A stretch of 64,000 nucleotides of DNA from Vicinamibacterales bacterium. GTDB taxonomy: Bacteria; Acidobacteriota; Vicinamibacteria; Vicinamibacterales; UBA823. Below, one piece after another: positions 1 through 64,000 of the stretch (the stretch's first letter is position 1; every line of letters starts with the position of its first letter). Location: positions 788,558 through 852,557 of the forward strand of contig CBDANA010000009.1 in assembly GCA_965197385.1 (NCBI GenBank), read 5' to 3'. The translations under genes and the position numbers were made by a program. The notes under the pieces were generated by a model. The model was not told the origin of the DNA, did no database searches, and saw nothing but the letters and a program-made list of their open reading frames with translations.

Positions 1-1
1 A

Positions 2-759
2 CGATCGCTGCGCCGCGAGACCGAGCTGTTCTTCGAGCACCTTGTTCGAGACGATCGCAGCGTGCTCGATCTGCTCGATGCCGATTACACATTCGTGGAC
101 GAGCGCGTCGCGAAGCACTATGGGATTCCGAACGTCACCGGCACACGCTTCCGGCGCGTCAGTCTGCCCGAGGAGCGGCGCGGGATCCTCGGCCACGGCA
201 GTATCCTGGCGTCGACGTCACTGGCCAATCGGACGTCGCCGGTGCTGCGCGGCAAGTGGGTGATGGAGGTGCTGCTCGGCAGCCCGCCGCCACCGCCCAA
301 CGTGCCGGAGCTCGAGGAGACCGAGGCGGTCGCGGGTGAGCGCCGGCTGTCGGTGCGGGAGCGGATGGAAGAGCATCGCTCGAACCCAGCCTACAGCTCG
401 TGCCATCGCGTCATCGACCCGCTCGGACTGGCGCTGGAGAACTTCGACGTCACGGGAGCCTGGCGCCTCAAGGACAGCGGCATGCCGATCGACCCGTCCG
501 GCGACCTGTACGACGGCACGCCGCTCAACGGCCCGGCAGATTTGCGCAAAGCGCTCCTGCATCGCTCACGAACGTTTCTCACGACCTTTACCGAGAACTT
601 GATGGCCTACGCCATCGGCCGTCGGATCGAGTACTACGACATGCCGGCGGTGCGGGCCATCATGCGGAACGCTGCCGAGCACGACCATCGAATGTCGGCA
701 TTCATTCTCGGCATCGCCAACAGTGCGCCGTTCCAGATGAGCCAGGCCAGCTGCGCTGA
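2..759 (+). CDS. DUF1588/DUF1592-family (PSD1-like) protein, C-terminal part; the 5' end is outside the window and the 3' end is uncertain
   Basis: In the frame of ORF 62..1549: DADYTFVDERVAKHYGIP, TSPVLRGKWV, PPPPPNVPEL and SCHRVIDPLGLALENFD are typical of this family. Homology ends near ...SAPFQM (~740), but no in-frame stop follows. The nearest stop is TGA 757-759 in another frame. Confidence 0.6.
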
Positions 760-836
760 CCGAAGATGCACCAGCGGAGCCGGCCGCTCAAGACGTCGAG
801 CGACCGATACTGACCCGACCCCAGGAGACAGAGGCG

Positions 837-2144
837 ATGTACATCACCAAGAAACATCTTTCGCGCCGCACGGTCCTCCGTGGCATGGGCGCGCTGCCGA
901 TGCTCCGCCATGGTGCCGGCGATTCGTTGAAGGCAGCCTCCTGGCAATCGAGATGGTGCATCGGCCGCCGACGAAGGTGGGTATCACCAAGTCGTCGCCG
1001 GCCGCCGCCGGAAGCGAGTTCGACCTCAGCCCGACGAGCATGCGTCCGCTCGAGCCGCTGCGCGAGCACCTCACGATCGTGAGCAACACTGGCATCCGCA
1101 ACGCCGAAGCGTTCACGGCGCCCGAGACGGGCGGCGACCACTTCCGGTCCAGCGCGACCTTCCTTACGCAGGAGCTCCGAAGCAGACGGAGGGATCCGAC
1201 ATCCACGTCGAACGATGGATCAGCTGTACGCGCAGCGGTTCGGCCAGGACGACGATGCAGCTCTGCATCGAGAAGATCAGTCAGGAGGCTGCGCGTACGG
1301 CTACGCCTGCGTCTACACCGACACGATCAGCTGGGCGTCGCCGACCGAGCCGCTGCCGATGGTGCGCGACCCACGCGTGGCCTTCGACCAGCTCTTCGGC
1401 GCCGGCGGCACGCCCGAAGAGCGCGCCGCGCGCCGCCGCACCGACAGCAGCCTCCTGGACTGGATCGCCGACGAGGTCGTTCGGCTCAAGCGAACGCTGG
1501 GGCCGACCGACCGGAATCGGCTGGACGACTATCTGGACGACGTCCGTGAGATCGAGCGCCGAATCCAGCGGATCGAGGCGGTGAACACGAGCGGCGAGCC
1601 GCGGGAGCTGCCCGAAGCGCCGATCGGCGTTCCCGACTCCTTCCGGGAGCACGTCGAAGTCATGTTCGATCTCCAGGCACTGGCCTTCCAGTCGGACCTG
1701 ACGCGCGTATTCTCGTTCAAGATGGGCCGCGACGCCTCAGGGCGCACGTACCCCGAGAGCGGTACCGCGCGCGGCTTCCACCCAGCGTCACATCACGGCG
1801 AGCGGGAGGACCGGGTACTCGAGTTCGCCAAGATCAACGCCTATCATGTCAGCTTGATCCCGTACTTCCTGAACAAGCTGAGGAGCATTCCCGACGGGGA
1901 TGCCACGCTGCTCGACCGGACGCTCGTTCTCTACGGATCGCCGATGGGTAACTCCAACGTCCACAACCACAAGCGCTGCCCGCTGTTCCTCGCCGGTCAC
2001 GCGAACAGCCAGCTCCAAGGCAACCTCCACGTGATCGCGGACGATCGCACGCCGATGGCCAACGTCATGTTGACCCTGCTGCACAAGCTTGGGCTCAACG
2101 ATCTGGAGAGCTTCGGCGACAGCACGGGTACGCTGTCGATCTGA
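837..2144 (+). pseudogene. DUF1552-family protein, multiply frameshifted
   Basis: AGGAGA RBS plus ATG 837 gives MYITKKHLSRRTVLRGMGA. Family-like segments then hop frames: AMVPAI, then RFV..AIEMVH..EFDLSPTSMRPLEPLREHLTIVSN..GGDHFRSSATFLTQ, then MDQLYAQRFGQD, then QLCIE, then GGCAYGYACVYTDTISW. The last frame runs intact to 2144. Confidence 0.75.
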
Positions 2145-2188
2145 TTGCAGACCACCGGAAGCGCTACACATCTGTCGGAGGGTGTCTG

Positions 2189-3892
2189 ATGCGGGGTACG
2201 AAGATCCTCGGCGGCTTCACGGTGAGCGTCATCGCGGCGCTCTACTTTCCCTTGCTCGCGGCGGTCGAATCGCCGGTGGCGGATGCCGCCATGCACGGCG
2301 ACACCGAGACGGTCCGGGCACTGCTGACGGACGGCGTCGATGCCAACACGGCGCAGGGCGACGGCATGACGGCGCTGCACTGGACGGCGGTTAACGGTGA
2401 TGTCGAGACGGCGCAGATGCTGCTCTACGCCGGAGCCAACGTGCGCGCCACGACCCGGCTTGGCACCTACACTTCGCTCCTGCTCGCGGCAGCCTCCGGT
2501 TCGGCCGAGGCCGTCACGACCCTCATTGCGAGCGGGGCCGACGTGAACGCGCTGGAATCGGGGCGCGGCCAGACGGCGCTCATGTTCGCCGCCGCGCTCG
2601 GCCGCGCGCAGGCGCTCGACGTGCTGCTGGCGCACGGCGCCGACACCACCCTGGCCACCACGGTGGTGGATGTCGTTGAGGTGGACAAGGAACTCAAGGC
2701 CGCCCGGAAGCAGCGCCAGGAGCGGGTCGATTCTGAGCTTAAGGCGGCGGTGGAAGCGGGCCTCGCAGCCAACCCGGACGTCATCCAACCGGAGCCCGAG
2801 GCCGAGCCACAGGACGAATCCGGCGGTCCCAATATCTTCAAGCGGTTCTTCGCCTGGATCGTTCTGGGTGGCGGCGGCGAAAACGATGAAAAGGGGCCCG
2901 AGCGACTCTCCTACGTACAGCTGGTCGGAAAACAGGGCGGTTTGACACCCCTGCATTTCGCCGCGCGCCAAGGCCATACCGACTCGGTCAAGAGCCTCCT
3001 GGCTGCCGGCGCCGACATCAATGCCCCGACCGGCGACGGGACGACACCGATCCTGATCTCGACGATCAACGGCCACTTCGACCTGTCGCAGTACCTGCTC
3101 GACCAGGGAGCGGACGCCACGATCGCCAGCGAAGCCGGTGCCACCCCGCTGTACGCGACGATCAACATGGAGTATGCGCCGCGCACGCTGCACCCGCAGC
3201 CGACCGCGTTTCGGCAGCAGCGGGTCACGTATCTGGAATTGATGGACGCGTTGCTGGATGCCGGCGTCGACGTGAACGCCAGGCTCTCAAAGAAGATCTG
3301 GTATTCGGGCTACAACTTCGATCTATCAAACGTGAACGAGACCGGCGGCACCGCCTTTTGGCGCGCGGCCTATGCGAGCGACATCGAGGCGATGCGTCTG
3401 CTCGTCGCCCGGGCCGCCGATCCCGACATCCGGACCCAGAAGACTCCCAGACGTCGTCGCCGTAGCGACCCGGACCCGAAGGACGACCCGTCTGGCTTGC
3501 GACCGGTCCCTGTGGGCGCGCCTGCCGTCACGCCACTCCAGGCGGCCGCCGGTGTCGGCTACGGATTCGGCTTTGCCGCCAACTCGCATCAGTTCCATCC
3601 CGGCGGCATGTTGCGCGCCGTCAGGTATCTCGTGGAGGAACTGGGCGCTGACGTGAACGCCCGCGACCATGACGGCTACACGGCGATGCACCACGCCGCC
3701 GCCAGGGGCGACAACGAGATGATCCAGTATCTGGTCTCGAAGGGGGCGGATGCGACGTTCGTCAGCCGACGAGGCCAGACGACGGTCGACATGGCGAACG
3801 GTCCGGTGCAGCGCATCGAGCCGTTCCCGGCGACCATCGCGCTCCTGGAGAGCCTGGGCGCCGTCAACAACCACAACTGCGTGTCCTGCTAG
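2189..3892 (+). CDS. secreted ankyrin-repeat protein
   Basis: N-terminal hydrophobic signal followed by many ANK repeats (GDGMTALHWTAVNGDVETAQMLLYAGANV, GLTPLHFAARQGHTDSVKSLLAAGADINA, GYTAMHHAAARGDNEMIQYLVSKGAD). Confidence 0.85.
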   Translation: MRGTKILGGFTVSVIAALYFPLLAAVESPVADAAMHGDTETVRALLTDGVDANTAQGDGMTALHWTAVNGDVETAQMLLYAGANVRATTRLGTYTSLLLAAASGSAEAVTTLIASGADVNALESGRGQTALMFAAALGRAQALDVLLAHGADTTLATTVVDVVEVDKELKAARKQRQERVDSELKAAVEAGLAANPDVIQPEPEAEPQDESGGPNIFKRFFAWIVLGGGGENDEKGPERLSYVQLVGKQGGLTPLHFAARQGHTDSVKSLLAAGADINAPTGDGTTPILISTINGHFDLSQYLLDQGADATIASEAGATPLYATINMEYAPRTLHPQPTAFRQQRVTYLELMDALLDAGVDVNARLSKKIWYSGYNFDLSNVNETGGTAFWRAAYASDIEAMRLLVARAADPDIRTQKTPRRRRRSDPDPKDDPSGLRPVPVGAPAVTPLQAAAGVGYGFGFAANSHQFHPGGMLRAVRYLVEELGADVNARDHDGYTAMHHAAARGDNEMIQYLVSKGADATFVSRRGQTTVDMANGPVQRIEPFPATIALLESLGAVNNHNCVSC

Positions 3893-3924
3893 CAGCCCTG
3901 CGCGCGAGGTTACGCATGGCTGGC
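3889..3924. repeat. mini palindrome starting with the CTAGCAGCCC repeat head
   Basis: CTAGCAGCCCTGCG...CGCATGGCTGGC form imperfectly complementary arms. The CTAG contains the ankyrin gene stop, and the right arm contains ATG 3916 of the next gene. Confidence 0.3.
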
Positions 3925-4581
3925 AACTTCCCGGTCGGCGGACGGAGCGTCTCGCGTCGCGAGCTGATCAAGCGCGCGCTCATAGCCGGCGCGGCGGCGA
4001 CCATGTCGGCCGAGACACTCGCGCACGCCGGGTCCGACCAGACGCCGTTCGACACGTTCGACACACTGTCACGGGCCGAAGCCGAAACCCTCCAGGCCAT
4101 CGTGGCCCGTCTCATCCCAACCGACGAGCGCGGCCCCGGCGCGAGCGAAGCCCGTGCGGAGCACTACATCGACCAGGCGCTGGCCGGCGCCCTGTCCGCG
4201 TCACGCCAGGCCTACGCCGACGGCCTGGCCGGCGTCGACGCCTACGCGCGAACGTCGAAAGGCGCCCTCTTCGCGTCGCTTCCAGCCGACGATCAGGACG
4301 CCGTCCTGCGCGAGATGGAGGCCAACACGGCAACCGGCTTCAGCCCGGACGCTTCGACCTTCTTCGAGCTGCTCCGCACCCATACGATCGAAGGCACCTT
4401 CGGCGATCCGTATTACGGCGGCAACACGAATTTCGTCGGGTGGGACCTGATTGGGTATCCAGGGGTCCGCGTGGTCGTCACGCCTCGCCACCAGCGGCTC
4501 GACATCGCGCCGCGGCCGGTCCACCGGTCGGCCTACGATTTTGGACGATTCGTGAAGGAAGTGCTGAACCGTGGCCGTTGA
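3916..4581 (+). CDS. gluconate 2-dehydrogenase subunit 3-family protein (Tat signal)
   Basis: Twin-arginine motif SRRELIKRALIAGAAA. Small subunit positioned directly upstream of, and overlapping, a GMC flavoprotein gene, which is the usual pairing. Confidence 0.7.
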   Translation: MAGNFPVGGRSVSRRELIKRALIAGAAATMSAETLAHAGSDQTPFDTFDTLSRAEAETLQAIVARLIPTDERGPGASEARAEHYIDQALAGALSASRQAYADGLAGVDAYARTSKGALFASLPADDQDAVLREMEANTATGFSPDASTFFELLRTHTIEGTFGDPYYGGNTNFVGWDLIGYPGVRVVVTPRHQRLDIAPRPVHRSAYDFGRFVKEVLNRGR

Positions 4582-6280
4582 CCTGCCGAAGACGGACGTG
4601 GTGATTGTCGGACTGGGTGCCGTCGGCGGCGTGGCCGCGTTGCCGCTCACGCGGGCTGGCCGCGATGTCATCGGGCTCGAAGCGGGCGCATGGATGCGCC
4701 GCCGCGACTTCGCCCCGGACGAGCTGCGCAACGGCGCCAGGGGATGGCCCCACGCGGTTCAGAAGGCGAACCGGGAGATTCCCGTGCACCGGCCGAACGC
4801 ATCAGCACCGGATTCCCCCCGGCTGACCGTCCATCCGATGATGAACGCGGTCGGCGGCACATCCCTCCACTATTGGGGCCAGAGCTGGCGCTTGAACCCC
4901 TGGGACTTCAAGGTCGTGAGCGAGACGACCCGGCGGTACGGCGCGGCGCGGATCCCCACTGGCTCGACGGTCGAAGACTGGCCGTTCGGGCTCAAGGAGC
5001 TCGAGCCGTTCTACGACCTGGTCGAGTACGAAGTGGGCGTCTCGGGTCAGGCCGGCAATATCAACGGCGCGATCGACCGGCGGGGCAACGTCTTCGAAGG
5101 CCCCCGCCGGCGTGACTATCCGATGCCGCCGCTCCGGGGCACGGGCTTCACCGAGCTCATGACGGACGCGGCACGAAGTCTCGACTGGCATCCGTTTCCC
5201 GGCCCGGCGGCCGTCAATTCCCAGCCGTACCAGAACCGAGCAGCGTGCGTCTATCACGGATTCTGCAGCCGCGGGGGCTGCCATGTCGACGCGAAGAGCT
5301 CCACCGCTGTGTCGACGATCCCGATGGCGCAGGAGACCGGGCACCTATCGGTCATCACGCATGCCCATGTCATCTCGGTCGGCGTCGATGGCAACGGTCG
5401 CGTCACCGGGGTGACCTATCGTAAAAACGGTGAAACCTACGTTCAGCCTGCCGAGGTGGTATTGCTCGGCACCTACACCTACGAGAACGTACGGACCCTC
5501 CTTCTCTCGATGTCGCGAGCCTACCCGGACGGCCTCTCGAACAACCACGGGCAGGTCGGCCGCCATTACTTCAGCCACAACATGGGGGCGGGCGTCCTCG
5601 CGCTCTTCCCGTCGAACCTGAACACGTGGTACGGCTTGCCCGCACAGGGCGTCGCGGTGGATGACTGGGCCGACGACAATTTCGACCACACCGATCTCGA
5701 CTTCATCGGGGGCGGCAACCTCTGGATCTACACCGAGCGACAACCGATCTCGGCGGCCAGGATGAACACATTTGGCCGCGCCCCGCGATGGGGCTCGGCC
5801 TGGAAACGGTTCGTCACGGAGAACGCCGACCGCTGGACCGGTACCTACATCCAGAAGACGACGCTGCCGTACGAAGACAACTACCTGGACCTGCATCCCA
5901 CCGTGAAGGACCCGCTCGGCTTCCCGGTCTGCCGGATCACCGCCGACTTCAAGGACAACGAGCGCAAAGTCGCCGCCTTCATGCAGGACAAGATGGTGCG
6001 GTGGTTCGAGGAGGCCGGCGCCATCGCCACGGTCCGGCAGTCCATCGGCACCATGCGGGCCACCCACGCCTACGGCGGGACGCGCATGGGTGACAATCCC
6101 GAGACGAACGTCGTCGACCGGTGGGGTTTCTCGCACGAGGCACCGAATCTGGGTGTTCTCGGCGCCTCGGTCATGGGCACGAGCGGCGCCCATAATCCCA
6201 CGTTGACGGCGCAGGCGCTCGCGTGGCGGACAGCCGACCATCTGGTCGAGAACTGGCGCGCGATCGCTAGCAGCCCGTAG
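4571..6280 (+). CDS. GMC-family FAD oxidoreductase (gluconate 2-dehydrogenase alpha-like)
   Basis: N-terminal Rossmann motif DVVIVGLGAVGG..LEAG, C-terminal GMC region HAYGGTRMG..VVD..GASVMGTSGAHNPTLT. The last residues and the stop lie inside repeat 6267-6345. Confidence 0.85.
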   Translation: MAVDLPKTDVVIVGLGAVGGVAALPLTRAGRDVIGLEAGAWMRRRDFAPDELRNGARGWPHAVQKANREIPVHRPNASAPDSPRLTVHPMMNAVGGTSLHYWGQSWRLNPWDFKVVSETTRRYGAARIPTGSTVEDWPFGLKELEPFYDLVEYEVGVSGQAGNINGAIDRRGNVFEGPRRRDYPMPPLRGTGFTELMTDAARSLDWHPFPGPAAVNSQPYQNRAACVYHGFCSRGGCHVDAKSSTAVSTIPMAQETGHLSVITHAHVISVGVDGNGRVTGVTYRKNGETYVQPAEVVLLGTYTYENVRTLLLSMSRAYPDGLSNNHGQVGRHYFSHNMGAGVLALFPSNLNTWYGLPAQGVAVDDWADDNFDHTDLDFIGGGNLWIYTERQPISAARMNTFGRAPRWGSAWKRFVTENADRWTGTYIQKTTLPYEDNYLDLHPTVKDPLGFPVCRITADFKDNERKVAAFMQDKMVRWFEEAGAIATVRQSIGTMRATHAYGGTRMGDNPETNVVDRWGFSHEAPNLGVLGASVMGTSGAHNPTLTAQALAWRTADHLVENWRAIASSP

Positions 6281-6345
6281 TGAAAATCCCGCGTGGCACC
6301 GAGGCAAGATCGACACGCAGCGTTACCCATGACGGCCGCCGCCCG
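6267..6345. repeat. short CTAG-anchored palindromic repeat (REPIN/MITE-like), copy A
   Basis: Left arm CTAGCAGCCCGTAGTGAAAATCC, degenerate right arm GTTACCCATGACGGCCGCCGC. Same head as the copies at 14698, 18401, 29589 and 38239. Confidence 0.45.
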
Positions 6346-9218: not shown

Positions 9219-9383
9219 ATGCCCAAGTGTCTCGAGTGCGACGCTGACATCCGCCTGAAGGCCGACGTCGAGTCCGGCGAGATCGTGGATTGCCCGGACT
9301 GCGGTACCGAGTTCGAGGTACGATCCGTCGATCCACCGCAGCTCGACTACGCACCCAAGGAAGAAGAGGACTGGGGCGAATAA
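9219..9383 (+). CDS. lysW: LysW/ArgW amino-group carrier protein
   Basis: 54 aa. Zinc-ribbon CxxC...CPDC ([24 protein letters not shown]) and the acidic tail ending EEEDWGE, which is diagnostic of LysW. Confidence 0.85.
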
Positions 9384-9388
9384 GGATC

Positions 9389-10249
9389 ATGCGCCTGGGC
9401 GTCCTCTGCTCCATCGTCCGCACCGAGGAAAAGCTGATCTTCCAGGCGCTCCGCGCCCGGGGGGTGCCGTTCGAGAAGATCGACGACCGGCAGCTCTCCC
9501 TTGATCTGCAGGTCCGCCAGCTGCCCTGGGATGTCGTCCTCGAGCGCGCGGTCAACCACGCGCGCGCCCTGCACACGTTGAAGATCCTGAACGACCGCGG
9601 CGTCCCGACGATCAACACCTGGGACGTCGCCAACGTCTGCGGCGACAAGGTGCTGACGACGAACGCGCTGGTGCGGCACGACGTGCCGACGCCAAGAACG
9701 CGGATCGCCTACACACCGGAGTCGGCTCTCGCCACGATCGAGGACATGGGCTATCCCATCGTCCTCAAACCGGCTGTCGGCTCCTGGGGCCGGCTGATCG
9801 CGCGGGTCAACGACCGGCAAGCCGCGGAAGCGCTGCTCGAGCACAAGCAGATCCTGGGGTCGTACCACCACTCGATCTTTTACATCCAGGAGTACATCGA
9901 GAAGGGGGGACGGGACATTCGCGCGTTTGTCGTCGGCGGCAAGACGATCTGCGCCATCTATCGGATGAGCGAGCACTGGATCACGAACACCGCCCGGGGC
10001 GCTACCACCGCCAACTGTCCAGTTACTGACGAGCTGGACGCCGTCTGCCTCGGGGCGACCAAGGCGGTCGGCGGCGGCGTCCTGGCGATCGACGTCTTCG
10101 AAACCGACCAGGGCCTCCTGGTGAACGAGGTGAACTACACGATGGAGTTCCGCAACAGCATCGGCGTCACCGGCGTGCCGATTCACGAGCGCATCGTGGA
10201 CTACGTGCTGTCCATCGGCCAGGCGCCGGCGACGATAGCCTCCCGATGA
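9389..10249 (+). CDS. lysX: RimK-type ATP-grasp ligase LysX/ArgX
   Basis: ATP-grasp motifs ([35 protein letters not shown]). Located directly after lysW. Confidence 0.8.
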
Positions 10250-11283
10250 AGGTCAACATTCTCGGGGGGTCTGGGTACGTTGGCGGCGAGCTGCTGCGGC
10301 TCCTGCTCGACCACCCCAAGGTGACCGTCGCGCAGGTCACGTCCGAGCGACTCGCGGGGAAACTCGTCGCGACGGCGCACCCGAACCTCAGGCGGCGAAC
10401 CGACCTGCGCTTCAGCCGCCTGGAGGACCTGGACCCATGCGATCTGCTCTTCGCCGCGCTGCCGCACGGGAGCTTCGCCCAGAAATTTGGGGAGCTGCGG
10501 TCCGTGGCGCCACGCATCATTGACATGAGCGCCGATTTCCGCCTGCGCTCGCCTGCGGCCTACCGACGCTGGTACGGCCACGACCACCCGAATCCGGCGG
10601 CACTCGCCGACTTCGTGTACGGCATCCCCGAGCTGCACCGGGCCGACATCGCGGGGGCAGCCTACGTGACCGGCGCCGGCTGCCTGGCGACGACGGCCAT
10701 CTTGGCGCTTCGCCCGCTCTTCCTCGAAGGGGTGGTCGCCAACCGCGAGGTCTATATCGAGGCGAAGGTCGGCTCGTCGGCAGCGGGCAACAAGGAAAAC
10801 GCGTCCTCACATCACCCGGAGCGCAGCGGCGCCGTCCGATCGTTCCAGCCGACCGGCCATCGGCACACCGGTGAGATCGTGCAGGAGCTCTCCGACCACG
10901 GCGCGCCGACGGTCCATTTTTCTGCCACAGCGATCGAGCTCGTGCGCGGTGTGCTCGTGACCGCCCACGTGCGTCTTACGCAGGATCTGGACACCAAGGC
11001 GCTCTGGAAGCTGTTTCGGGCCGCGCACGGTCACGAGCCCTTTATCCGAATCGTGAAGGAGGCGCGCGGCGTCTTCCGCTATCCGGAACCGAAGATCTTG
11101 GCCGGCTCCAACTACTGCGACGTCGGCTTCGAGCGCGATGCCGACGCCGACCGGCTGGTCGTCCTCGCCGCTCTCGACAATCTCATGAAGGGCGCCGCCG
11201 GCAACGGCGTGCAAGCGATGAACGTCATGGCCAGCTGGGACGAGCGCACGGGTCTGGACTTCCCCGGACTGCACCCGGTCTGA
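10246..11283 (+). CDS. lysY: [LysW]-aminoadipate/glutamate semialdehyde-forming reductase (ArgC family)
   Basis: [20 protein letters not shown], and the active-site region [11 protein letters not shown] is typical of ArgC/LysY. Confidence 0.8.
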
Positions 11284-11291
11284 TCGCGCCG

Positions 11292-12116
11292 ATGCTAGTC
11301 GTCAAAGTCGGCGGCGGCCGCGGCATTGGCTACGAGCCGGTGTGCGACGATCTCGCAGCGCTGCACGCGCGAGGCTGCCCGTGGCTCTTGGTCCACGGCG
11401 GGTCGCACGAGACGAACGAGCTGGCCAAGGCGCTGGGGCATCCCCCGCGGTTCGTTACGTCGGCCTCGGGGTACGAGAGCCGTTACACCGATCGCCGGAC
11501 GCTCGAAATCTTCGAGATGGCGTACTGCGGCAAGGTGAATAAGCGTATCGTCGAGCTATTGCAGCGCCGGGGTGTCCCTGCCATCGGGTTGGCCGGCCTG
11601 GACGGCCGCCTGCTGTCGGGCCCCCGGAAGGCGACGCTCACCATCGTCGAAAGCGGAAAGAAGAAGGTCCTCCGGGACGATCACACCGGCAAGATCACGT
11701 CGGTCAACACCGAGCTCATCCGAGTACTCTATGATGCCGGCTACGTGCTCGCGGTCTGCCCGCCCGCCATCAGCGACGACCATGTCGCCGTCAACGTGGA
11801 TGGCGACCGCGCGGCAGCCCGGCTGGCCGACGCGGTGGGTGCGGACGACCTCGTGATTCTCTCCAATGTTCCTGGCCTGCTGCGCGATCCTGATGACGAG
11901 TCGTCCCTCATCCGCCATATCGTATCGGATGCCCTGGACGGATACGTCGACTACGCCAAAGGGCGGATGAGAAAGAAGCTAATGGCGGTCAAGGAGGCGC
12001 TCGCCGGCGGCGTCCGACGGATCGTGCTGGGGGATGCCCGGCTCGACCAGCCCGTGACGGAAGCGCTCGCCGGCAGAGGAACGGTCGTTGCAGCCGCAGG
12101 ACATCATCGCGCGTGA
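11292..12116 (+). CDS. lysZ: [LysW]-aminoadipate/glutamate kinase (ArgB family)
   Basis: Amino-acid kinase fold: VVKVGGG, LVHGGS, AVNVDGDRAAA. Confidence 0.8.
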   Translation: MLVVKVGGGRGIGYEPVCDDLAALHARGCPWLLVHGGSHETNELAKALGHPPRFVTSASGYESRYTDRRTLEIFEMAYCGKVNKRIVELLQRRGVPAIGLAGLDGRLLSGPRKATLTIVESGKKKVLRDDHTGKITSVNTELIRVLYDAGYVLAVCPPAISDDHVAVNVDGDRAAARLADAVGADDLVILSNVPGLLRDPDDESSLIRHIVSDALDGYVDYAKGRMRKKLMAVKEALAGGVRRIVLGDARLDQPVTEALAGRGTVVAAAGHHRA

Positions 12117-13251
12117 AGACCGGCATTCGTCCGGCCTGTACCACAAGCGTCCGATCGCCCTCGTCCGGGGCAAGGGCGCGCGGGTGTGGGACGCTGACGG
12201 CCGCGAGTACATCGACTGCACCGCCGGCATCGGCGTCGCCGTCCTCGGCCACGCCCACCCGGTCGTCGTCGAGGCCCTGGCCGCGCAGGCGGGTCGGCTG
12301 ATCACGGTGCACGAACTGTTCTACAACGACCGGCGCGCGGCCCTGCTCGAGCGGCTGCACGCGGTCACGCCGCCCTCGCTCGACCGATTCTTCCTCAGCA
12401 ACTCCGGCGCCGAGGCGAACGAGGCGGCCATCAAGTTCGCGCGGGCGGCGACCGGCCGACCGGAAATCGTGTCCGCGATGCGCGGCTACCACGGCAAGAC
12501 GCTCGGCGCACTGAGCGCGACGTGGGGCAAGAACTACCGCGCGCCGTTCGAACCGCTCGTGCCCGGCTTCCGGACCATCCCGTTCAACCGACCCGAGGCG
12601 GTCGCGGTCGCTGTCACGGACGCGACCGCGGCGGTGATCGTCGAGGTCGTCCAGGGCGAAGGCGGCATTCGACCGGCGACCACGGAGTACTTGCGCGCCA
12701 TCCGCGACGCCTGCACCGAGCGCGGCACGCTGCTCATCATCGATGAGGTCCAGACCGGCTTCGGCCGCACGGGGACACTGTTCGCGTTCGAGCACCACGA
12801 CGTGGTCCCAGACATCCTGACACTCGCCAAGAGTGTGGCGGGCGGCATCCCAATGGGGGTGACGGCATTCGGCGACACCGTCGGCCAGTTGGCCAAATTG
12901 AGCCACACGACGACCTTCGGGGGCAACCCGCTGGCCTGCGCCGTGGCCGATCGGGTCATCGCGCACATCGTGGAGACCGATCTGCCGGCCCGCGCGGCCA
13001 CAGCCGGCCAGCGGACGATGGATGCCATCCGCGCCTTCGGCAGCCCGCACGTCCGGGACATCCGCGGCCTGGGTCTCATGATTGGCATCGAGCTGAAGCG
13101 CCCGGCCGCCAAGACAGCCCGGGCGTTGATGGATGAGGGCGTTCTGGCGCTGCTGGCCGGCTCGACGGTCCTCCGGCTACTGCCGCCGCTCGTCATCGAA
13201 GCGGACGAGCTCGACACAGTGGTCGCCGCCCTGGGCAGGGTGCTCGCGTGA
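12088..13251 (+). CDS. lysJ: class III aminotransferase (ArgD/LysJ family)
   Basis: Motifs GIGVAVLGHAHP, IVEVVQGEGG, LIIDEVQTGFGRTG, LAKSVAGGIPMG. Confidence 0.8.
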   Translation: MQPQDIIAREDRHSSGLYHKRPIALVRGKGARVWDADGREYIDCTAGIGVAVLGHAHPVVVEALAAQAGRLITVHELFYNDRRAALLERLHAVTPPSLDRFFLSNSGAEANEAAIKFARAATGRPEIVSAMRGYHGKTLGALSATWGKNYRAPFEPLVPGFRTIPFNRPEAVAVAVTDATAAVIVEVVQGEGGIRPATTEYLRAIRDACTERGTLLIIDEVQTGFGRTGTLFAFEHHDVVPDILTLAKSVAGGIPMGVTAFGDTVGQLAKLSHTTTFGGNPLACAVADRVIAHIVETDLPARAATAGQRTMDAIRAFGSPHVRDIRGLGLMIGIELKRPAAKTARALMDEGVLALLAGSTVLRLLPPLVIEADELDTVVAALGRVLA

Positions 13252-14297
13252 CCGATCGGGATGCCATCGACCTGCTGCGTGATCTTTGCGCCGTGTACTC
13301 GCCGTCAGGCGAGGAGGTCGGCGCAGTGTCGTTGCTGGTGGAGCGAGCCAACCGGGCCGGCCTCCACGCATTCTCTGATGACGTCGGGAACTTCGTCGCC
13401 GAGCGCGGCACTGGCCCGACCACGATCGTCCTGCTGGGTCACGTGGACACCGTGCCGAGCTTCATCACCCCGTCGGTGGCCGGCCGGTCGCTGCATGCCC
13501 GGGGCGCCGTCGATGCCAAGGGACCGCTTACCGCGTTCGTCGCGGCGGCCTCCCATGCCGCGATTCCGGACGACGTCCGGGTGGTCGTCATCGGCGCCGT
13601 CGAGGAGGAGGCGCCAACGTCGAAAGGGGCCCACTTCGTCCGCGATCGATATGCGCCCTCGGCGGTCGTTATCGGTGAGCCGAGCGGTGTCTCGGGCATC
13701 ACCCTCGGGTACAAGGGGCGCATCGGCCTGACGCTTGTCGCGCAGCAGGCGCACGCGCACACGGCCGCCGAAGACAGGAGCATCGCCGCGCGTGCCGCTG
13801 ACTGGTGGACCCGACTCGAGGACTACTGCGAGCGTCGCAACCACGCACGCACCGTCTTCGAACGACTCGACCCACACCTGGCAGAGTTTCAGACGTCGAC
13901 CGATGGATTCACCGACCGCGCCGACCTGCGCGGCAGTGTACGCCTCCCGCTTGACGCAGCTGTCGATGACCTGCGGGCTCGATTCGAGGAACTGGCCTCC
14001 GGCTGGGGCTCGGTGTCACTCGACGGATTCGTTCCGCCGTTCAAAGCGGGCCGCAAGAACCGACTGGTCGCCGCCTTCATTCGAGCGATCCGGCAAGCCG
14101 GCCTGACCCCCAGCTTCAAGCTGAAAACCGGCACGTCTGACATGAACGTCGTCGGCCCGGTCTGGCGGTGCCCGATTGTCGCCTATGGCCCGGGCGACTC
14201 GACCCTCGACCACACCCCTGAGGAACACGTGGACCTCGACGACTACCTGCTCGCCGTCCGCGTCTTGACACACGTCCTCGGCGACCGGCTTCAGTGA
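13248..14297 (+). CDS. lysK: M20-family deacylase ([LysW]-lysine/ornithine hydrolase, ArgE/LysK family)
   Basis: Motifs LLGHVDTVP, ARGAVDAKG, EEEAPTSKGA. It is the last gene of the lysW cluster and has overlapping start/stop codons. Confidence 0.7.
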   Translation: MTDRDAIDLLRDLCAVYSPSGEEVGAVSLLVERANRAGLHAFSDDVGNFVAERGTGPTTIVLLGHVDTVPSFITPSVAGRSLHARGAVDAKGPLTAFVAAASHAAIPDDVRVVVIGAVEEEAPTSKGAHFVRDRYAPSAVVIGEPSGVSGITLGYKGRIGLTLVAQQAHAHTAAEDRSIAARAADWWTRLEDYCERRNHARTVFERLDPHLAEFQTSTDGFTDRADLRGSVRLPLDAAVDDLRARFEELASGWGSVSLDGFVPPFKAGRKNRLVAAFIRAIRQAGLTPSFKLKTGTSDMNVVGPVWRCPIVAYGPGDSTLDHTPEEHVDLDDYLLAVRVLTHVLGDRLQ

Positions 14298-14697: not shown

Positions 14698-14887
14698 CTA
14701 GCGGCCCGTGGTGAAAGTCCAGCGACGCACCGAGACCCCGCTGAACCAACGCCGCGGTCGCCCAGCGCAAGGCGCGACGAGGGAAAATACCGGCTGTATG
14801 TGGCCCATCTTGGACAATGCCCAGCGCCGCCGAAGCCGAGATGCAGCGCCGGTCGCATGCAGCTGGACTTTCACCACGGGCTGCTAG
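14698..14887. mobile_element. non-autonomous MITE-like element, copy B (CTAG...CTAG)
   Basis: TIRs are CTAGCGGCCCGTGGTGAAAGTCCAGC and GCTGGACTTTCACCACGGGCTGCTAG. The internal core is shared with the copies at 29589 and 38239. Confidence 0.7.
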
Positions 14888-16779: not shown

Positions 16780-16811
16780 GGTTCGTAGCTCGCAACCGGA
16801 CGGCCTCGCCG

Positions 16812-18471: not shown

Positions 18472-18738
18472 TCACGGCCGCACGGCGAGTTCCGCCGCGA
18501 AAAGCATCGTCCGGTCGTCATCCCGCACCGCCCATCGCATCAGCGTGCGCACATCCGGCTCCAGGTGCTGTCCGACGGCGGTCCAGCCATTCACGCGGAC
18601 CCGAATGCGGCGCGACAGGTCGAACCGATCCGGTGACACCAGGATCGTGAACCCGGCGATGCCGGTCGTCTCAGGCAGACCGTTCGACAGTGAAGCATCA
18701 TCCGTTCTCCGGAGCGGTCTCCTGCCCGCTCGGCTCAT
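18472..18738 (-). pseudogene. possible 5'-truncated gene remnant (C-terminal domain only)
   Basis: Only the last ~88 codons of track ORF 18472..19293 look protein-like (GFTILVSPDRFDLSRRIRVRVNGWTAVGQHLEPDVRTLMRW...). The rest is antisense to the amidohydrolase gene. Confidence 0.3.
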
Positions 18739-29786: not shown

Positions 29787-29822
29787 ACAGGGTGGACGCG
29801 GCGCGCCAGACGGAGCGCTCGC

Positions 29823-41097: not shown

Positions 41098-41174
<77 letters not shown>

Positions 41175-45787: not shown

Positions 45788-45926
45788 CCTGGAGGATCTG
45801 GATCCTCGCAGTCGTACTCGTCACCGCCGTGACCGGCGCGACGTATTCCGTCTACGCGTTCACGTTCACCGGGGCCCGCTGGCCGAATGGCAAGGCACCT
45901 ACATGCTGACGCTCGCCGTCAGCTAG
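45784..45926 (+). pseudogene. N-terminal fragment of a secreted protein, cut at the CTAG junction
   Basis: ATG overlaps the upstream TGA. MTWRIWILAVVLVTAVTGATYSVYAFTFTGARWPNG..., then a frame slip, and the reading frame ends in the CTAG at 45923-45926. Confidence 0.35.
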
Positions 45927-46451
45927 CAGGACGACGGACACGTCGTGCCGGCTCGAGAAGCCGATCTCGCTGTCGAGACGCTCGAGGAGATGCTTCCGGT
46001 TGAACGCTCCGGTCAGCTCGTCACGCACCGCCGCCTGGTACATCAGACGCTGAAATTCCCCGTCGACGTCGTCATGGAAGCCGAACTTGAGCACGGTCGC
46101 CGGGCCGAGCTGGAGCCGGTCGCCGTCGAACAACTGGGCGTTGGTGACCGACGTGCCGTTGAGGTACGTCCCGTTGGTCGACCCGAGATCCTGGACGAAG
46201 AACCGATCGCCCCGCTTCTCGAATCGCGCGTGATCGCGAGACACCTCCTTGTCGGTGACGCTCACCCGGACACCCGGGGCACGGCCGACGACGTCGTCGC
46301 CCTGCAGCTTGTACATCTTACCGACGTTCGGGCCGGCCATGACGATGACGTATGCCGCATATTTTCGCGTCCCACGGGCCAACTCCTCGATCAGCTGGCG
46401 ATTGCCGATGATCGTCTTGTCAGGCGAGGTGTCGTCGTCGTCCTCAGGCAC
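45852..46451 (-). pseudogene. FHA-domain diguanylate cyclase, 3'-truncated
   Basis: FHA domain (GRAPGVRVSVTDKEVSRDHARF..LGSTNGTYLNG), then the start of GGDEF (DELTGAFNRKHLLERLDSE...HDVSVVLL). This stops exactly at CTAG 45923-45926; the remaining 24 codons are unrelated. Confidence 0.7.
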
Positions 46452-46510
46452 GAGTTGAATAGTACACCGCGGCGGGCTCCGCGCATAGCGCTCCGCGCGG
46501 GCTGCTAGAC

Positions 46511-49048: not shown

Positions 49049-50351
49049 CTAGCAGGCTGCTGAAGAACCCGGGTATCGGGCTGTTTTCTTAAGCATCATG
49101 CGGGTAACGACCGCCCGACGACCGTGCGCACGGGTGTGCGCTGACCCCGATGAGGGGGCCGGCGACACGCGCGGCCGGCGAGCAGGGACACGTCGCCTCC
49201 AGATTCCGCAGGCGGACCAAGTTATAGGCCGTGGCGGCGAAAGTGAGCTGCCACTCGACGAGTGGGACGCCGCGAGGCCGGAGCTTGCGCAAACCACCGA
49301 CGGTCTGCCTCCACCCAAAGACCTGTTCCACGAGTTTTCGTTTCCGCTGACTCACGTGAGAACCCGCATGCCGGGTGGGCCGACCATCAATCGCCCGCCA
49401 GCGGACCTTCTGCGCCACGTGGGGCGTGACGTCCCGGACGCGGACATCGGCGACGAAGCTCGCCACATCGTAGCCCTTGTCTGCTCCGACCGTGCTGCCC
49501 GGCGGCGCGCTGGCCTCCAGCAACAGTGCCGCCGCCTCGCGTTCGGCGGTCCCCGTCGCGTGGGTCGCACAGACGTTGGCGACGAGCCCCTGCCGATTAT
49601 CCAACAGCACGTGGCCCAGAGACGCCAGCTTCGCCTCCTTCCCTTGGCCCTTCCGATGCAGCATCGCCGCCGGATCAGTCGTCGACTGGTGCGTGTCGTT
49701 GCGCCGCCGCTCGCCGTGGAAGTCGACCGTGGGATTCCCGGGGTCATCGGGGGGCGCGCGCGGCGCGGCGTCCCGGCATCGGAAGCTCTTCAGGCTGGCC
49801 CAGGCTTCCAACTGCGTCCCGTCCACCGTGAAATGCTCGTCCGAGAGCAGACCGGCCGCCCGGGCGTGGGCCTGGACCGCATCAACGAAGGCGGCCGCGC
49901 CATCCCCCGCCAGCAGCCGGTCACGATTCTTGGTAAACGTCGTGGGATGCCAGACCGGGTCGTCCATATGCAAGCCGACGAACCAGCGGAACAGCAGGTT
50001 GTCGTTGAGCTCTTCCAGCAGCAGCCGTTCGCTCCGGATCGTGTACAGCACCTGCAGCAACAGGGCCCGCAACAATGGCTCAGGCGGGATCGACGGACGT
50101 CCCGTCTTGGCGTACAGGCCGGCGAACCTGCGCGACATCGTCTTCAGCGCGTGATCCGTCAGCGCGCGGACCGCGCGGAGCGGAGGATCGGCCGGCACGC
50201 GCTGTTCCGGCGACCGGTAACTGAACATGTGATGGGTCTGCTCATCGTGTCCGCGCATGAGGTGGCTCCCTTCAGCAATATTGGGAGCATGGGAGTACGC
50301 CGGGATCGATCTGTCGATCCCATTCCATGGACTTTTTCAGCAGCCTGCTAG
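49049..50351 (-). mobile_element. IS5-family insertion sequence, copy 2 (inverted relative to copy 1)
   Basis: Same 1.3-kb element with CTAG at both ends. I saw only two differences from copy 1: one in the IR (GCTGCTG vs GCTACTG) and one His/Tyr codon. Confidence 0.9.
49089..50258 (-). CDS. IS5-family DDE transposase
   Basis: 389 aa, identical to 24057..25226 except ...GGRYPHDA vs ...GGRHPHDA. Confidence 0.9.
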
Positions 50352-53621: not shown

Positions 53622-54996
53622 ATGCCTGCCAAATACGACGCCCTGATCATCGGCACCGGCCAGGCCGGCCCAGCCCTGGCGCATCGCCTCGCGGCCGCCG
53701 GCTGGAAGACCGCCGTCGTCGAGCGGCACAAGTTCGGCGGCACCTGCGTAAACACCGGCTGCATCCCGACGAAGACGCTGGTCGCCAGCGCCCGCGCCGC
53801 CTACGTGGCTCGGCGCGCCGTCGACTACGGCGTCACCTTCGGCGGTGAGGTGTCGCTGGACATGGCCCGGGTCAAGGCCCGGAAGGACGCCATCTCCAGC
53901 AAGTCGAGCCAGGGTCTCGAACGATCCCTCAAGACACTCGAGCACGCAACCGTCTACGAGGGGCATGCGTGCTTCACCGGCCCCCACACGGTTGCGGTGG
54001 GTGACCAGACGCTCGAGGCGGAGCGCATCTTCATCAACGTCGGCGCCCGCGCCTTCGTCCCCGACATGCCGCTTGGCGACGTGCCGTACCTGACCAACTC
54101 CAGCATGGTGGAGGTGGACTTCCTGCCGGAGCATCTCATCGTGATTGGCGGCAGCTACGTCGGCCTGGAGTTCCGCCAGATGTACCGGCGGTTCGGCAAC
54201 AAGGTCACGATCGTCGAACAAGGACCGCGCCTCATCTCGCGGGATGACGAGGACGTGTCGGCCGCCGTGAAGGAGATCCTGGAAGCGGAGGATATCGAGA
54301 TCCGCCTCGATGCCAAGTGCCTGAGCGAGCATCGCGGAACGGCCAGGTCGCCGTCGCCTTGGAGTGCGCGGCAGGCGCACCCGAGGCCGTCGGATCGCAT
54401 CTCCTGCTGGCCGTCGAACGGCGGCCGAACACCGACGACCTCGGCCTCGATCTCGCTGGTGTCGAAACCAACGCACGCGGTTACATCACCGTGGACGACC
54501 AGCTGCGCACCAACGCGGACGGCATCTGGGCGCTGGGCGACTGCAATGGCCAGGGAGCCTTCACGCACACGTCGTACAACGACTTCGAGATCGTTGCGGC
54601 GAATTGCTGGACGACGACCCGCGGCGCGTCAGCGACCGGATTCTGATCTACGGCCTGTTCATCGACCCGCCGCTCGGCCGAGCCGGCATGACCGAGACCC
54701 AGGTCCGCGCCTCTGGAAAGAAGGCGCTCATCGCCAAGCGGCCGATGTCGCGCATCGCACGGGCGATCGAGCGCGGCGAGACGCAGGGGTTCATGAAGAT
54801 CCCGGTGGATGCCGACTCGAAGCTGATTCTCGGCGCCGCCGTCCTCGGCATCAACGGCGACGAGATCGTCCATTCCATTCTCGACATCATGTACGCCAAG
54901 GTGCCCTACACCGTCATCCAGCGCGCCGTCCACGCCCACCCGATCGTCACCGAGCTCATTCCCACGATACTGGCTGAGCTGAAGCCGCTGGAATGA
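53622..54996 (+). pseudogene. pyridine nucleotide-disulfide oxidoreductase (class I, CxxxxC), twice frameshifted
   Basis: YDALIIGTGQAGP and GGTCVNTGCIPTK occur in frame a up to ~54330. RNGQVAVALEC...GIWALGDCNGQGAFTH is in frame b. LLDDDPRRVSDRI...HAHPIVTELIPT is in frame c. The second shift sits at a short T run (AATTGCTGG). Confidence 0.8.
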
Positions 54997-54997
54997 C

Positions 54998-62236: not shown

Positions 62237-62247
62237 GGAGCCAGCTG

Positions 62248-63360
62248 CTAGTGTGCTGTCTCTAACGCTTCTTTACAATGGCGCACCTTTCGGAGAATCG
62301 TGGCCGCGGGCGCCGTCCAAATGAAGGGCTCGGCCGAGCGGTTGTGGTGCGTCACATACTCTTCGATGGCACGAATCAGATCCGGCAGGCTCCGGAACGT
62401 GCCGCGGCGAATCCGTTTCCGAGTGATCTCCGCGAACCAGCGCTCGATCAAGTTGAGCCACGAGGCGCTTGTGGGGACGAAGTGACGGTAGTAGCGCGGG
62501 TGATCAGCGAACCACTGTTCGACTTTCGGATGCGTGTGCGTGCCGTAGTTGTCGAGAATGAGATGGATATCGCGCCGCTTGGGGACTGCGCGATGCAGCT
62601 GATTCAAGAAGGCCAGGAACTCCGTGTGCCGTTTCCGCGGCGCACACCGCGCGAGGACGGTGCCATCCAAGACGTTCAGCGCCGTAAACAGGTTTGTCGT
62701 GCCGTGACGGATATAGTCGTGCGTCTGGCGCGCGGGAATGCCCCTTCGCAACGGGAGCACCGGCGCGGTTCGATCCAGGGCCTGCACCTGCGGTTTCTCA
62801 TCGACACAAAAGACCAAGGCGTTGTCGGGCGGATGGAGGTAGACGCCCACGACATCCCGCAACTTCTTCACGAAGTTGGGATCGCGGCTGAGTTTGAAGG
62901 TTTCGACGCGATGCGGCTGCAACCCATGCGCGCGCCAGATGCGATGGACCACCGCGTGGCTGAGCCCTTGCGCCTTCGCCATCGTCCGCACGCTCCAGTG
63001 CGTCGCATCGGGCGGCGTCGTCTGCAAGGTCGCGTCGACCACGGCCGCGATGGCCTGGGCCGTCAGCGCGGGGCGTCGACCTGGCCGTGGGGCATCCTTC
63101 ATCAGGCCGAGCACGCCGACCTGCTGAAAGCGACGCCGCCACAGGTACACCGTCGGCCGGCTCACCCCGAACTCTTTCGCAATCGCATTAATGGGTTTGC
63201 CCTCACTCGCCGCGAGCACAATCATCGCGCGTGCCGACACGCGCTGCGGCGTCTTGCCGCTGCGCACCAGTGCCTCGAGCCCCGTGCGTTGCACCCGTGT
63301 AAGGGCCAATGCCTTCGCAGGGTTCCACATGCTGCGCACCATACGCCTTCTGTGGTACAT
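62248..63360 (-). CDS. IS630-family (Tc1/mariner-like) DDE transposase
   Basis: HTH region (INAIAKEFGVSRPTVYLWRRRF), DDE region (VFCVDEKPQVQAL...LILDNYGTHTH...SWLNLIERWF). Confidence 0.9.
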   Translation of the reverse strand: MYHRRRMVRSMWNPAKALALTRVQRTGLEALVRSGKTPQRVSARAMIVLAASEGKPINAIAKEFGVSRPTVYLWRRRFQQVGVLGLMKDAPRPGRRPALTAQAIAAVVDATLQTTPPDATHWSVRTMAKAQGLSHAVVHRIWRAHGLQPHRVETFKLSRDPNFVKKLRDVVGVYLHPPDNALVFCVDEKPQVQALDRTAPVLPLRRGIPARQTHDYIRHGTTNLFTALNVLDGTVLARCAPRKRHTEFLAFLNQLHRAVPKRRDIHLILDNYGTHTHPKVEQWFADHPRYYRHFVPTSASWLNLIERWFAEITRKRIRRGTFRSLPDLIRAIEEYVTHHNRSAEPFIWTAPAATILRKVRHCKEALETAH

Positions 63361-63384
63361 TGTAAAGCTATTTACGTGACGCTA
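62249..63384 (-). mobile_element. IS630-family insertion sequence (TA-flanked)
   Basis: About 1.14 kb. Imperfect IRs share ...CTTTACAATG at both ends, with TA at 62249-50 and 63383-84. It lies 12 nt from the pncB start region. Confidence 0.7.
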
Positions 63385-63515
63385 CGCTGGGGGTTAGACT
63401 CGGATTTCCGATTTGGCTATGGTACCGTATCGGCAGGCCAGTCGCCGCGCCTTGATTTCCGGGGCTCCGACGCAAGGAACCCCGCCACGGAGGGTGACAC
63501 CCTGTGGGTGAATGA

Positions 63516-64000
63516 CAGCACGAGGCGTTTCAGTTCACGTTCAATGGCTTTCTGAAGGTCGCATTCCAGGGGTCGCGCATCACCTCCGACGCCGGTCTCC
63601 TTCTGGTGCGCGAGTTGGATGAACGCCTGGGGCTGGCGACACTCATCGCCGAGCACCTGAGCGACTCCCGACAGGGCTTGCACACCCAGTTCAGCCTGGC
63701 GGATCTCCTGCGACAGTCGGTCTACAGTCGGCTCGCGGGCTACGAAGACCTGAACGATGCGGTGCGCGTGTCGGCGGACCCGACGTTTCGTCTCATCGGG
63801 GCGCCAACGCTCTGGGACCGCGGTGGCGCGCTGACCTCGCCGCTGCATTGGTTCGAGACTGAGCTGCTGACCCGAGAGGAGAAGCTCGTCGGGCTGATGG
63901 CCGTGAACCGGGAGGTGCTCGCACAGGCTGAGATGCCAACGCGCGCCGGCCGGATTGTGCTCGACATGGATTCGAGTGAGAGCCCGGTGCATGGGGCGCA
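63516..64000 (+). mobile_element. IS1380-family transposase gene, partial (runs off the window)
   Basis: By-eye translation: FQGSRITSDAGLLLVRELDERLGL...RQSVYSRLAGYEDLNDAVRVSADPTF...VLDMDSSESPVHG is typical of IS1380 transposases. No clean start codon is in frame; ATG 63513 is one frame off. Confidence 0.65.

Follow-up and report, generated by a model that had tools for sequence, protein, structure and literature searches.

What has interrupted so many genes in so short a stretch of bacterial DNA: genome decay, a faulty consensus, or recoding of stop codons? The question is raised by a window of 64,000 nucleotides (nt) from a Vicinamibacterales bacterium (GenBank assembly GCA_965197385.1, contig CBDANA010000009.1, positions 788,558 to 852,557). 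A sequence-only reading of this window had counted at least 10 broken genes among about 60 and had offered three explanations, namely real pseudogenization in a lineage rich in insertion sequences (IS) and miniature inverted-repeat transposable elements (MITEs), assembly or polishing error, and tolerated read-through of the in-frame stops. The count was borne out, with 10 to 11 of ~54 non-transposase genes disrupted. It is quite probable that the window mixes inherited and strain-specific pseudogenes with one assembly artefact, and that no recoding is involved. The picture itself is a known one, pseudogene accumulation alongside IS activity overlaid by a long-read assembly defect; what is new is confined to the host lineage and to the view at population level.

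The window has a GC content of 67%, and its source is read as an uncultured soil-type Acidobacterium of the order Vicinamibacterales. Exact-sequence look-ups placed the window's proteins on one contig of 1,192,369 bp. Seven assemblies, ~99% identical to the window at the nucleotide level and fetched via shared protein clusters, served as conspecifics:

S1: ERZ25766727, contig "ctg362382_19x_c", 4.38 Mb (loci L008, L014, L016, L018 and L021)
S2: ERZ25068966, "9x" (loci L009 and L023)
S3: ERZ28763718 (loci L010, L017, L020 and L024)
S4: ERZ25074053, "5x" (loci L012, L019 and L022)
S5: ERZ25071132, "2x" (locus L011)
S6: ERZ25067264, "2x" (locus L015)
S7: Logan assembly of run ERR14231558 (locus L013)

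Labels such as "19x_c" were taken from the contig names to mean coverage and circularity. The window strain differs from the S1 to S5 clade at 0.64% of sites. More distant comparisons were made with a contig of 5.2 Mb that is ~98% identical to the window (L025), with a sister species represented by a Vicinamibacterales metagenome-assembled genome (MAG) (L002, CAXXNN010000001.1), which was found with a GGT-like protein of the window and is syntenic with window positions 10.5 to 34.4 kb at ~92% nucleotide identity, and with an outgroup Acidobacteria MAG (L001, ~76%). The analysis covered the window together with ~100 kb of S1's 4.38 Mb genome, and lesions were judged by comparing assembled sequences.

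Inherited pseudogenes and the patch at 748 to 1274

All five single in-frame stops of the sequence-only reading (TAG at 16312, 17286 and 27036, TAA at 23228, TGA at 37873) are where it had placed them, and all lie on the minus strand. The homology that it had noted on both sides also held: Pfam domains run unbroken across three of the stops, and homologues confirm the other two. When the same codons were compared in sister genomes, as it had advised, relatives were found to carry sense codons for E, Q, Y and W. The sister species L002 has sense codons and unbroken alignments for four stop-carrying genes, as well as full-length sequence at the site of a 17-nt deletion described below. Because L002 is intact at these sites, the density of broken genes is a property of the lineage or of the assembly, and not chance. 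The shared strand of the five stops was considered as a signal and treated as chance, the base changes being heterogeneous (on the coding strand, two C>T, two G>A and one C>A).

Four of the disrupted genes are broken in the species as a whole:

22454 to 23875, minus strand: cystathionine beta-synthase-like gene (CBS; PALP and CBS domains), in-frame TAA at 23228–23230
26220 to 27749, minus strand: sodium:solute symporter (SSF), in-frame TAG at 27036–27038
36743 to 38157, minus strand: SpoIIE/PP2C-type phosphatase remnant, TGG>TGA at 37873–37875 and a 756-nt deletion with its junction at 37082/37083
53622 to 54996, plus strand: FAD-containing pyridine-nucleotide-disulfide oxidoreductase (458 to 459 amino acids [aa] when intact), 1-nt deletions at 54327/8 and 54604

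The PALP domain of the CBS gene aligns over positions 2 to 295 of 295 across the TAA, which is present in all five conspecific assemblies that cover the site, while L002 and L001 have TAC. Further lesions have followed in other strains. A 1-nt deletion at 23423 in S1 to S5 is derived there, since the sister and the outgroup keep the length seen in the window; S3 and S4 carry an IS3 insertion, and S4 has in addition a CAG>TAG change at 23413 and two 1-nt deletions. The SSF model likewise aligns in full (1 to 406 of 406) across the TAG at 27036, which recurs in six of six conspecific assemblies covering the site, the Logan read-run assembly among them; L002 and L001 have TGG. S1 has acquired another stop in this gene (TGG>TGA at 26331).

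Intact orthologues of the phosphatase are 724 aa long. The 94-aa fragment that ends at the TGA at 37873 recurs in at least five conspecific contigs, while L025 has TGG at this site and 756 nt more sequence; its own copy is broken by a different frameshift into pieces of 512 and 197 aa. What had been read as a frameshift at ~37090 is not a small lesion: it is the junction of the 756-nt internal deletion. An apparent frameshift at ~36750 in the frame plot proved to be merely the transition from the rnc gene to the phosphatase remnant. In the oxidoreductase, the frameshifts noted at 54330 and 54610 correspond to the two 1-nt deletions listed above. The first, in a non-homopolymer context, is common to S1 to S4, and the second is found on the window's contig only. 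Rebuilt across both, the protein is 94 to 95% identical to intact relatives of 458 to 459 aa over 100% of its length. Other strains again carry their own lesions (CGA>TGA at 53822 in S1, a 1-nt deletion at 53677 in S2). At the junction of the phosphatase deletion and at the first frameshift of the oxidoreductase, no assembly shows an indel relative to the window.

The CBS, SSF and SpoIIE lesions and the first oxidoreductase frameshift thus recur in three to six other assemblies from different ENA samples. Since they are carried by different strains, 0.64% apart, in different samples, they are older than the strain divergence. Across the window, the disabling lesions lie in open reading frames (ORFs) that have full-length orthologues, both in L002, L001 and L025 and in protein clusters of 458 to 459, 513 to 525, 579 to 585 and 724 aa. 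The CBS gene, the SSF gene, the SpoIIE-type phosphatase gene and the FAD oxidoreductase gene are real pseudogenes.

Near the left end of the window the situation is different:

748 to 1274, plus strand: deletion patch that ruins two neighbouring genes, a DUF1592/1588/1585 (PSD) gene at its 3' end and a DUF1552 gene over its 5' third

The corresponding Pfam pieces are split over two frames. Outside the patch, the locus of S6 (L015) agrees with the window at ~99.9% over 6 kb, and it encodes both proteins intact, the DUF1592/1588/1585 protein with 812 aa and the DUF1552 protein with 458 aa. Measured against it, the patch lacks ~76 nt in 12 (MAFFT) to 21 (BLAST) deletions of 1 to 25 nt, with ~2 substitutions and no insertions. 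At a divergence of 0.1%, evolution would not pack a dozen deletions into 530 bp, and the patch is, judged from these alignments, a poorly resolved long-read consensus and not biology. The sequence-only reading had seen a frameshift cluster at 740 to 1290; the broken frames are indeed present in the sequence, but they would not be biological, and the local clustering of frameshifts to which it had drawn attention is accounted for by this patch. Nowhere else in the window did we find the combination of many indels, few substitutions and absence from a near-identical assembly.

The genes concerned belong to a trio (DUF1592 family, DUF1552 and ankyrin repeat; window positions 1 to 3936) that is absent at this position from S1 and S3 (L016 and L017), where DinB, peptidase M24 and DAO genes are found instead. 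In L015, the trio adjoins a DDE_Tnp_1_4 transposase that is also found at window positions 63394 to 64000.

Private lesions and the distribution of disabling events

A second set of lesions is seen on the window's contig only. It comprises TAG 16312, TAG 17286, the 17-nt deletion and 1-nt deletions at 29816, 30132, 42490 and 54604. The genes disrupted in this way, apart from those listed elsewhere, are as follows:

15031 to 16884, minus strand: amidohydrolase A (orthologues 579 to 582 aa), in-frame TAG at 16312–16314
16812 to 18374, minus strand: TPR-like protein (orthologues 513 to 525 aa), in-frame TAG at 17286–17288
18767 to 20506, plus strand: amidohydrolase 2 (580 to 585 aa in relatives), 17-nt deletion at 18804, frame lost for the N-terminal ~34 residues
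29823 to 30149, minus strand: conserved 108-aa gene (HicB-like candidate, by eye), 1-nt deletion at 30132 near codon 6

Amidohydro_3 aligns over positions 1 to 472 of 472 across TAG 16312, a site that reads GAG in L002 and L001 and then CAG in conspecifics. On the coding strand, TAG 17286 arose when CCAGG became CTAGG; the sister species and every other assembly read CAG here, and the 362-aa and 130-aa fragments of the TPR gene occur on the window's contig only. The 17 nt at 18804 are present in S1 to S4 and in L002. The possible frameshift that had been suspected at 18830 to 18850 thus reflects a frame that is broken, but by this deletion. In the 108-aa gene, an upstream GTG yields a 129-aa ORF. 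The short homopolymer that had been held to carry a lesion (C7 versus C8 at 30157) lies upstream of the gene, and the derived state is that of the other strains, not of the window.

Three of these private lesions (TAG 16312, TAG 17286 and the 17-nt deletion) fall in the block from 15 to 22 kb, which has been struck independently in other strains: amidohydrolase A by a +C frameshift at 15796 in S1, amidohydrolase 2 by TGG>TAG at 20190 in S3 and S4 and by a 1-nt deletion at 18848 in S4, and the block again by a 1-nt deletion at 20860 in S2 and S5. A fourth, the deletion at 54604, sits in the already dead oxidoreductase. Outside the patch, five private events are disabling, and four of them lie in coding sequence that is already dead or independently hit elsewhere, which makes up 29% of the exposure (p~0.03, hand calculation). 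We consider it likely, from this placement, that the lesions private to the window's contig are real. Between the TPR gene and amidohydrolase 2 lies an 88-aa ORF (18472 to 18738, minus strand) that is conserved in conspecifics and patchy in the sister species; it may be what is left of an older gene.

With the 748 to 1274 patch left out, 24 lineage-specific disabling events were counted over all assemblies. They are distributed as follows:

Four inherited pseudogenes: 11 of 24 events, 14% of exposure, p=2e-4
Block 15.0 to 22.4 kb (amidohydrolase A, TPR protein, amidohydrolase 2 and GGT): 9 of 24 events, 15% of exposure, p=5e-3
All remaining coding sequence: 4 of 24 events, 71% of exposure, deficit p=6e-8

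The events thus avoid 71% of the coding exposure and do not fall regardless of gene function. Among the genes untouched in every assembly, even in those labelled "2x" to "5x", are the LysW-type cluster, purA, rnc, the genes for G6PD, 6PGD and PGI, the glycolate oxidase subunits and NAPRTase. Errors would not respect gene function, as mutations filtered by selection would, which argues against random consensus error. Relaxed selection is indicated by the concentration of secondary lesions in the broken genes and, more tentatively, by a near-neutral ratio of nonsynonymous to synonymous changes (N:S). The LysW-type amino-group-carrier cluster (9219 to 14297, plus strand) is complete, with LysW, LysX, LysY/ArgC, LysZ/ArgB, an aminotransferase and an M20 peptidase, and is intact in every assembly.

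The spectrum of changes was also informative. Of the window-branch substitutions that could be polarized with L002, 58 of 79 (73%) are GC>AT transitions, a ~3-fold bias per site; a bias of this size is expected of spontaneous mutation in bacteria. About 3.2% of GC>AT changes in these genes are expected to create a stop, and the two private amber codons among ~60 recent coding changes match this prediction for unfiltered mutation. No sequence motif dominated among the window-branch GC>AT transitions (GGCAA occurred 5 times against 0.5 expected, TCCTG 3 times against 0.7), which lends no support to methylation-motif miscalls and no strong support to a 5-methylcytosine hot spot.

Taken together, 10 to 11 disrupted genes give a broken fraction of ~19% at most in the window's contig and ~6% in the best assembly, of which ~100 kb was examined. 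In the regions of the S1 genome that were seen, 5 of ~85 non-IS genes were split, as counted by eye. A six-frame ORF comparison with L002 and L025 gave no extra breaks in the real genes checked by eye, its output being dominated by spurious ORFs of high GC content. Allele-tolerant patterns around TAG 17286 and TAG 27036 found no match in the JGI metagenomes scanned, and nothing was found in the literature under the accession numbers or on Vicinamibacterales and pseudogenes.

Several points weigh against a mixture of inherited and strain-specific decay. The private lesions rest on one contig, and that contig holds at least one demonstrably erroneous patch. The window branch is ~1.5 times longer than expected, with an N:S of 24:19 in intact genes, which is near neutral; a branch of this kind would result from recent mutations that are still unfiltered or from some errors among the substitutions. 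Within the clade, polymorphism amounts to N25:S11 with 4 nonsense changes in shared-broken genes versus N50:S44 with 2 nonsense changes in intact genes, a contrast that, like the rate tests on individual genes, has low power (Fisher p=0.06 to 0.11) and is suggestive only. Branch amino acid counts for the window versus L002, with L001 as outgroup, are 23:11 for CBS and SSF together versus 61:53 for intact genes, a weak excess with too little power to date the losses. S3, S4 and S7 have variants in common and are possibly not independent samples. Finally, an error reproduced across samples is formally possible.

These points bear most directly on the idea that the species-level lesions are real and that everything private to the window's contig, the 748 to 1274 patch included, is consensus error in an assembly of lower quality. 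The obvious error patch, the gene fragments found on no other contig and the long branch with its nearly neutral N:S would all fit, as would the private small indels of the contig, all of which are deletions except for an unpolarized extra G at 8777. We nevertheless think this explanation unlikely. Private errors would not be expected to gather in genes that are dead or hit elsewhere, as four of the five disabling events do, and no private lesion lies in the core of a housekeeping gene. The ~3-fold GC>AT bias is that of real mutation, and S1, with its "19x" label, carries private nonsense and frameshift lesions on a comparable scale.

Far less probable still is that errors of sequencing or polishing, such as systematic miscalls made in every sample, account for all or nearly all the disruptions, the shared ones among them. 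All the assemblies are apparently long-read metagenome assemblies, and several have a low stated coverage (2x to 9x). However, the shared lesions are a C>A transversion, two G>A transitions, the 756-nt deletion and a non-homopolymer 1-nt deletion, and no single error mode gives all of these types across samples. They are found in the "19x" contig labelled as circular and in strains differing by 0.6%, the secondary lesions concentrate in the same genes (p=2e-4) while housekeeping genes are spared (p=6e-8), and even the low-coverage L015 (2x) agrees with the window almost perfectly outside the patch.

Recoding, by which a suppressor tRNA, selenocysteine, pyrrolysine or leaky read-through would keep the genes functional, is rejected, although frame and domain homology continue past each stop and TAG accounts for three of the five: TAG, TAA and TGA all occur among the stops; at these sites, orthologues show normal codons for E, Q, Y and W and no conserved stops; the amino acid replaced varies by site; the affected genes have also suffered frameshifts, the 756-nt deletion, IS insertions and additional stops, both here and in other strains; and within the 64-kb window no suppressor tRNA or recoding signal was found by ARAGORN (tRNA-Met only) or Rfam (an ALIL element and a tRNA only, with no selenocysteine insertion sequence or other recoding RNA). 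The sequence-only reading had ranked read-through last on the ground that TAG also ends at least eight apparently intact genes; TAG is in fact the stop of 16 coding segments, three of these being the internal stops. Of its other two explanations, real pseudogenization holds for most lesions, being common to independent assemblies and followed by secondary lesions in the same genes, while assembly or polishing error holds for the 748 to 1274 cluster only and not for the other lesions.

Mobile elements and rearrangement

That the lineage is rich in IS and MITEs, as had been supposed, is borne out by what is found in the window:

14698 to 14887, strand not assigned: MITE-like element of 190 bp, 26-nt terminal inverted repeats, CTAG flanks
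38239 to 38417: second full copy of the MITE-like element, with partial copies at 29588–29790, 35727–35790 and 6266–6308
23968 to 25261, plus strand: IS5-family element (DUF772 and DDE_Tnp_1 transposase, 1294 bp), CTAG flanks, absent from all conspecific assemblies
49053 to 50347, minus strand: second IS5-family copy, 100% identical to the first, inverted, CTAG flanks, absent from conspecifics
41257 to 42306, minus strand: IS3-family copy without its 5' ~250 bp (most of orfA), adjoining a tRNA-Met gene (41098–41174)
42299 to 43143, plus strand: 3' remnant (residues 178 to 458), cut at ~42300 beside the truncated IS3, of a hypothetical gene with an intact 458-aa copy in S1; extra 1-nt deletion at 42490
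62248 to 63360, minus strand: IS630-like transposase; synteny with S1 ends at 62210
63516 to 64000, plus strand: start of a DDE_Tnp_1_4 transposase, which closes the window

Recent activity is apparent from the identical IS5-like copies, from their flanks, which are CTAG target duplications, from polymorphism among strains, and from the IS3 insertion in the CBS gene of S3 and S4. The MITE-like family consists of intergenic elements of ~180 to 190 bp with terminal inverted repeats of 25 to 26 nt (CTAGCGGCCCGTGGTGAAAGTCCAGC...) and CTAG flanks. The copy at 29583 to 29789 is absent from the sister L002. The ends of these elements loosely resemble those of the IS5-like element, and CTAG is the target of the latter too.

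The two-ORF arrangement of the IS3 copy is no sign of decay; it represents a programmed -1 frameshift with an ALIL pseudoknot at the orfA/orfB overlap. The pseudoknot (RF01497, 42115 to 42237, minus strand, 87.1 bits), upstream of the rve-domain orfB, is retained in this copy. The same copy marks a synteny breakpoint: sequence to its left matches S1 at 2.84 to 2.89 Mb and sequence to its right matches S1 at 3.78 to 3.82 Mb, so that the window joins two regions that are ~0.9 Mb apart in the 4.38 Mb genome. The tRNA-Met gene is a variable integration site, and the content downstream of it varies by strain (integrase fragments, an acetyltransferase and IS3 copies in L018, L019 and L020).

As for the truncated genes that had been proposed in this part of the window, 42544 to 43143 belongs to the true remnant listed above. 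The ORF at 45852 to 46451, in contrast, has a complete FHA domain, and its truncation was not demonstrated. It lies in a 911-bp segment (45543 to 46453) that is deleted in S1 between short CGAG repeats; the ORF neighbouring this segment has 209 aa in the window and 109 aa in the 4.38 Mb genome. A PilZ-domain protein (32079 to 32765, plus strand) is intact here at 228 aa, as it is in L025 and other relatives; in S1 to S4 (L008 and L018), a 1-nt deletion at 32227 reduces it to 153 aa.

Gene loss in the species and comparison with known systems

These observations are best explained by a species in which ordinary mutation removes genes against a background of active IS5-, IS3- and IS630-type elements and an active MITE family. 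The CBS, SSF, phosphatase and FAD oxidoreductase genes would already have died in the ancestor that the sampled strains share, after its split from the ~92% sister and, in the case of the phosphatase, after the split from the ~98% relative; the dead genes would since have evolved neutrally, gaining stops, frameshifts and IS insertions in different strains. The block of amidohydrolase A, TPR protein, amidohydrolase 2 and GGT, which adjoins the dead CBS gene, would have been hit independently in each strain lineage, and the window's own hits would be two CAG>TAG transitions and the 17-nt deletion, possibly under selection that was relaxed on a functional module after its first loss. The stops would be products of the GC>AT bias that is usual among mutations in a genome of 67% GC. 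The 530-bp patch at 748 to 1274 would be a badly resolved consensus laid over this record.

The adjoining dead and dying genes (CBS, SSF, the two amidohydrolases and GGT) hint at a functional module that is decaying piecemeal and in parallel across strains. It is tempting to go further and to see early reductive evolution here, with modules decaying domino-fashion after the loss of CBS and SSF and with neighbours knocked out independently in each strain, but this we regard as doubtful; the pattern in the block could also reflect selection for loss. If domino decay were true, a natural population would have been caught in mid-decay and could be followed across many long-read metagenomes. In any case, the repeated independent hits on one block amount to a small natural experiment on pathway decay.

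Split genes and in-frame stops in long-read MAGs are often put down to faulty polishing. When several assemblies of one species are compared, as here, inherited pseudogenes can be told from artefact without recourse to reads, and one contig was found to hold both kinds, so that the comparison tells which of its broken genes to believe and which to repair. Metabolic reconstructions from these MAGs should leave CBS, this SSF transporter, the FAD oxidoreductase and the SpoIIE-type phosphatase out of the functional gene set. Several percent of the genes are dead in this abundant, uncultured Acidobacterium of soil type, whose pseudogenes vary among strains and which shows recent IS5 and IS3 activity and IS-linked rearrangements; the phylum Acidobacteriota is not known for genome decay.

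Three known systems offer comparisons. Amber-mutation hot spots at 5-methylcytosine in CCAGG were reportedly described in lacI by Coulondre and Miller, and TAG 17286, formed from CCAGG at the inner C, resembles them. Two window-branch C>T changes lie at the inner C of CCWGG, at 17288 (which created this amber) and at 10702 (CCTGG). In contrast to such hot spots, the enrichment of CCWGG here is not significant, and TAG 16312 adjoins such a site but is not in one. The patch at 748 to 1274, with many small deletions, few substitutions and two conserved genes out of frame, resembles long-read metagenome consensus errors; gene-splitting errors of this kind are addressed by IDEEL-type length checks and short-read polishing. 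Unlike the usual scattered homopolymer errors, it is a single local patch, and the other lesions are shared or avoid constrained genes.

The closest likeness is to the IS-linked accumulation of pseudogenes in Bordetella pertussis, Yersinia pestis, Shigella, Burkholderia mallei and Mycobacterium ulcerans. Pseudogene accumulation with IS expansion is typical of recently bottlenecked or niche-restricted bacteria, whereas the organism studied here is an uncultured member of the Vicinamibacterales with a genome of ~4.4 Mb and no known host association or bottleneck. In other respects the resemblance is extensive: here as in those pathogens, nonsense changes, indels, deletions and IS insertions strike metabolic, transport and signalling genes, identical IS copies with target duplications are accompanied by rearrangements and truncations beside them, and dead genes go on to gain more lesions, so that the pseudogene content varies from strain to strain.

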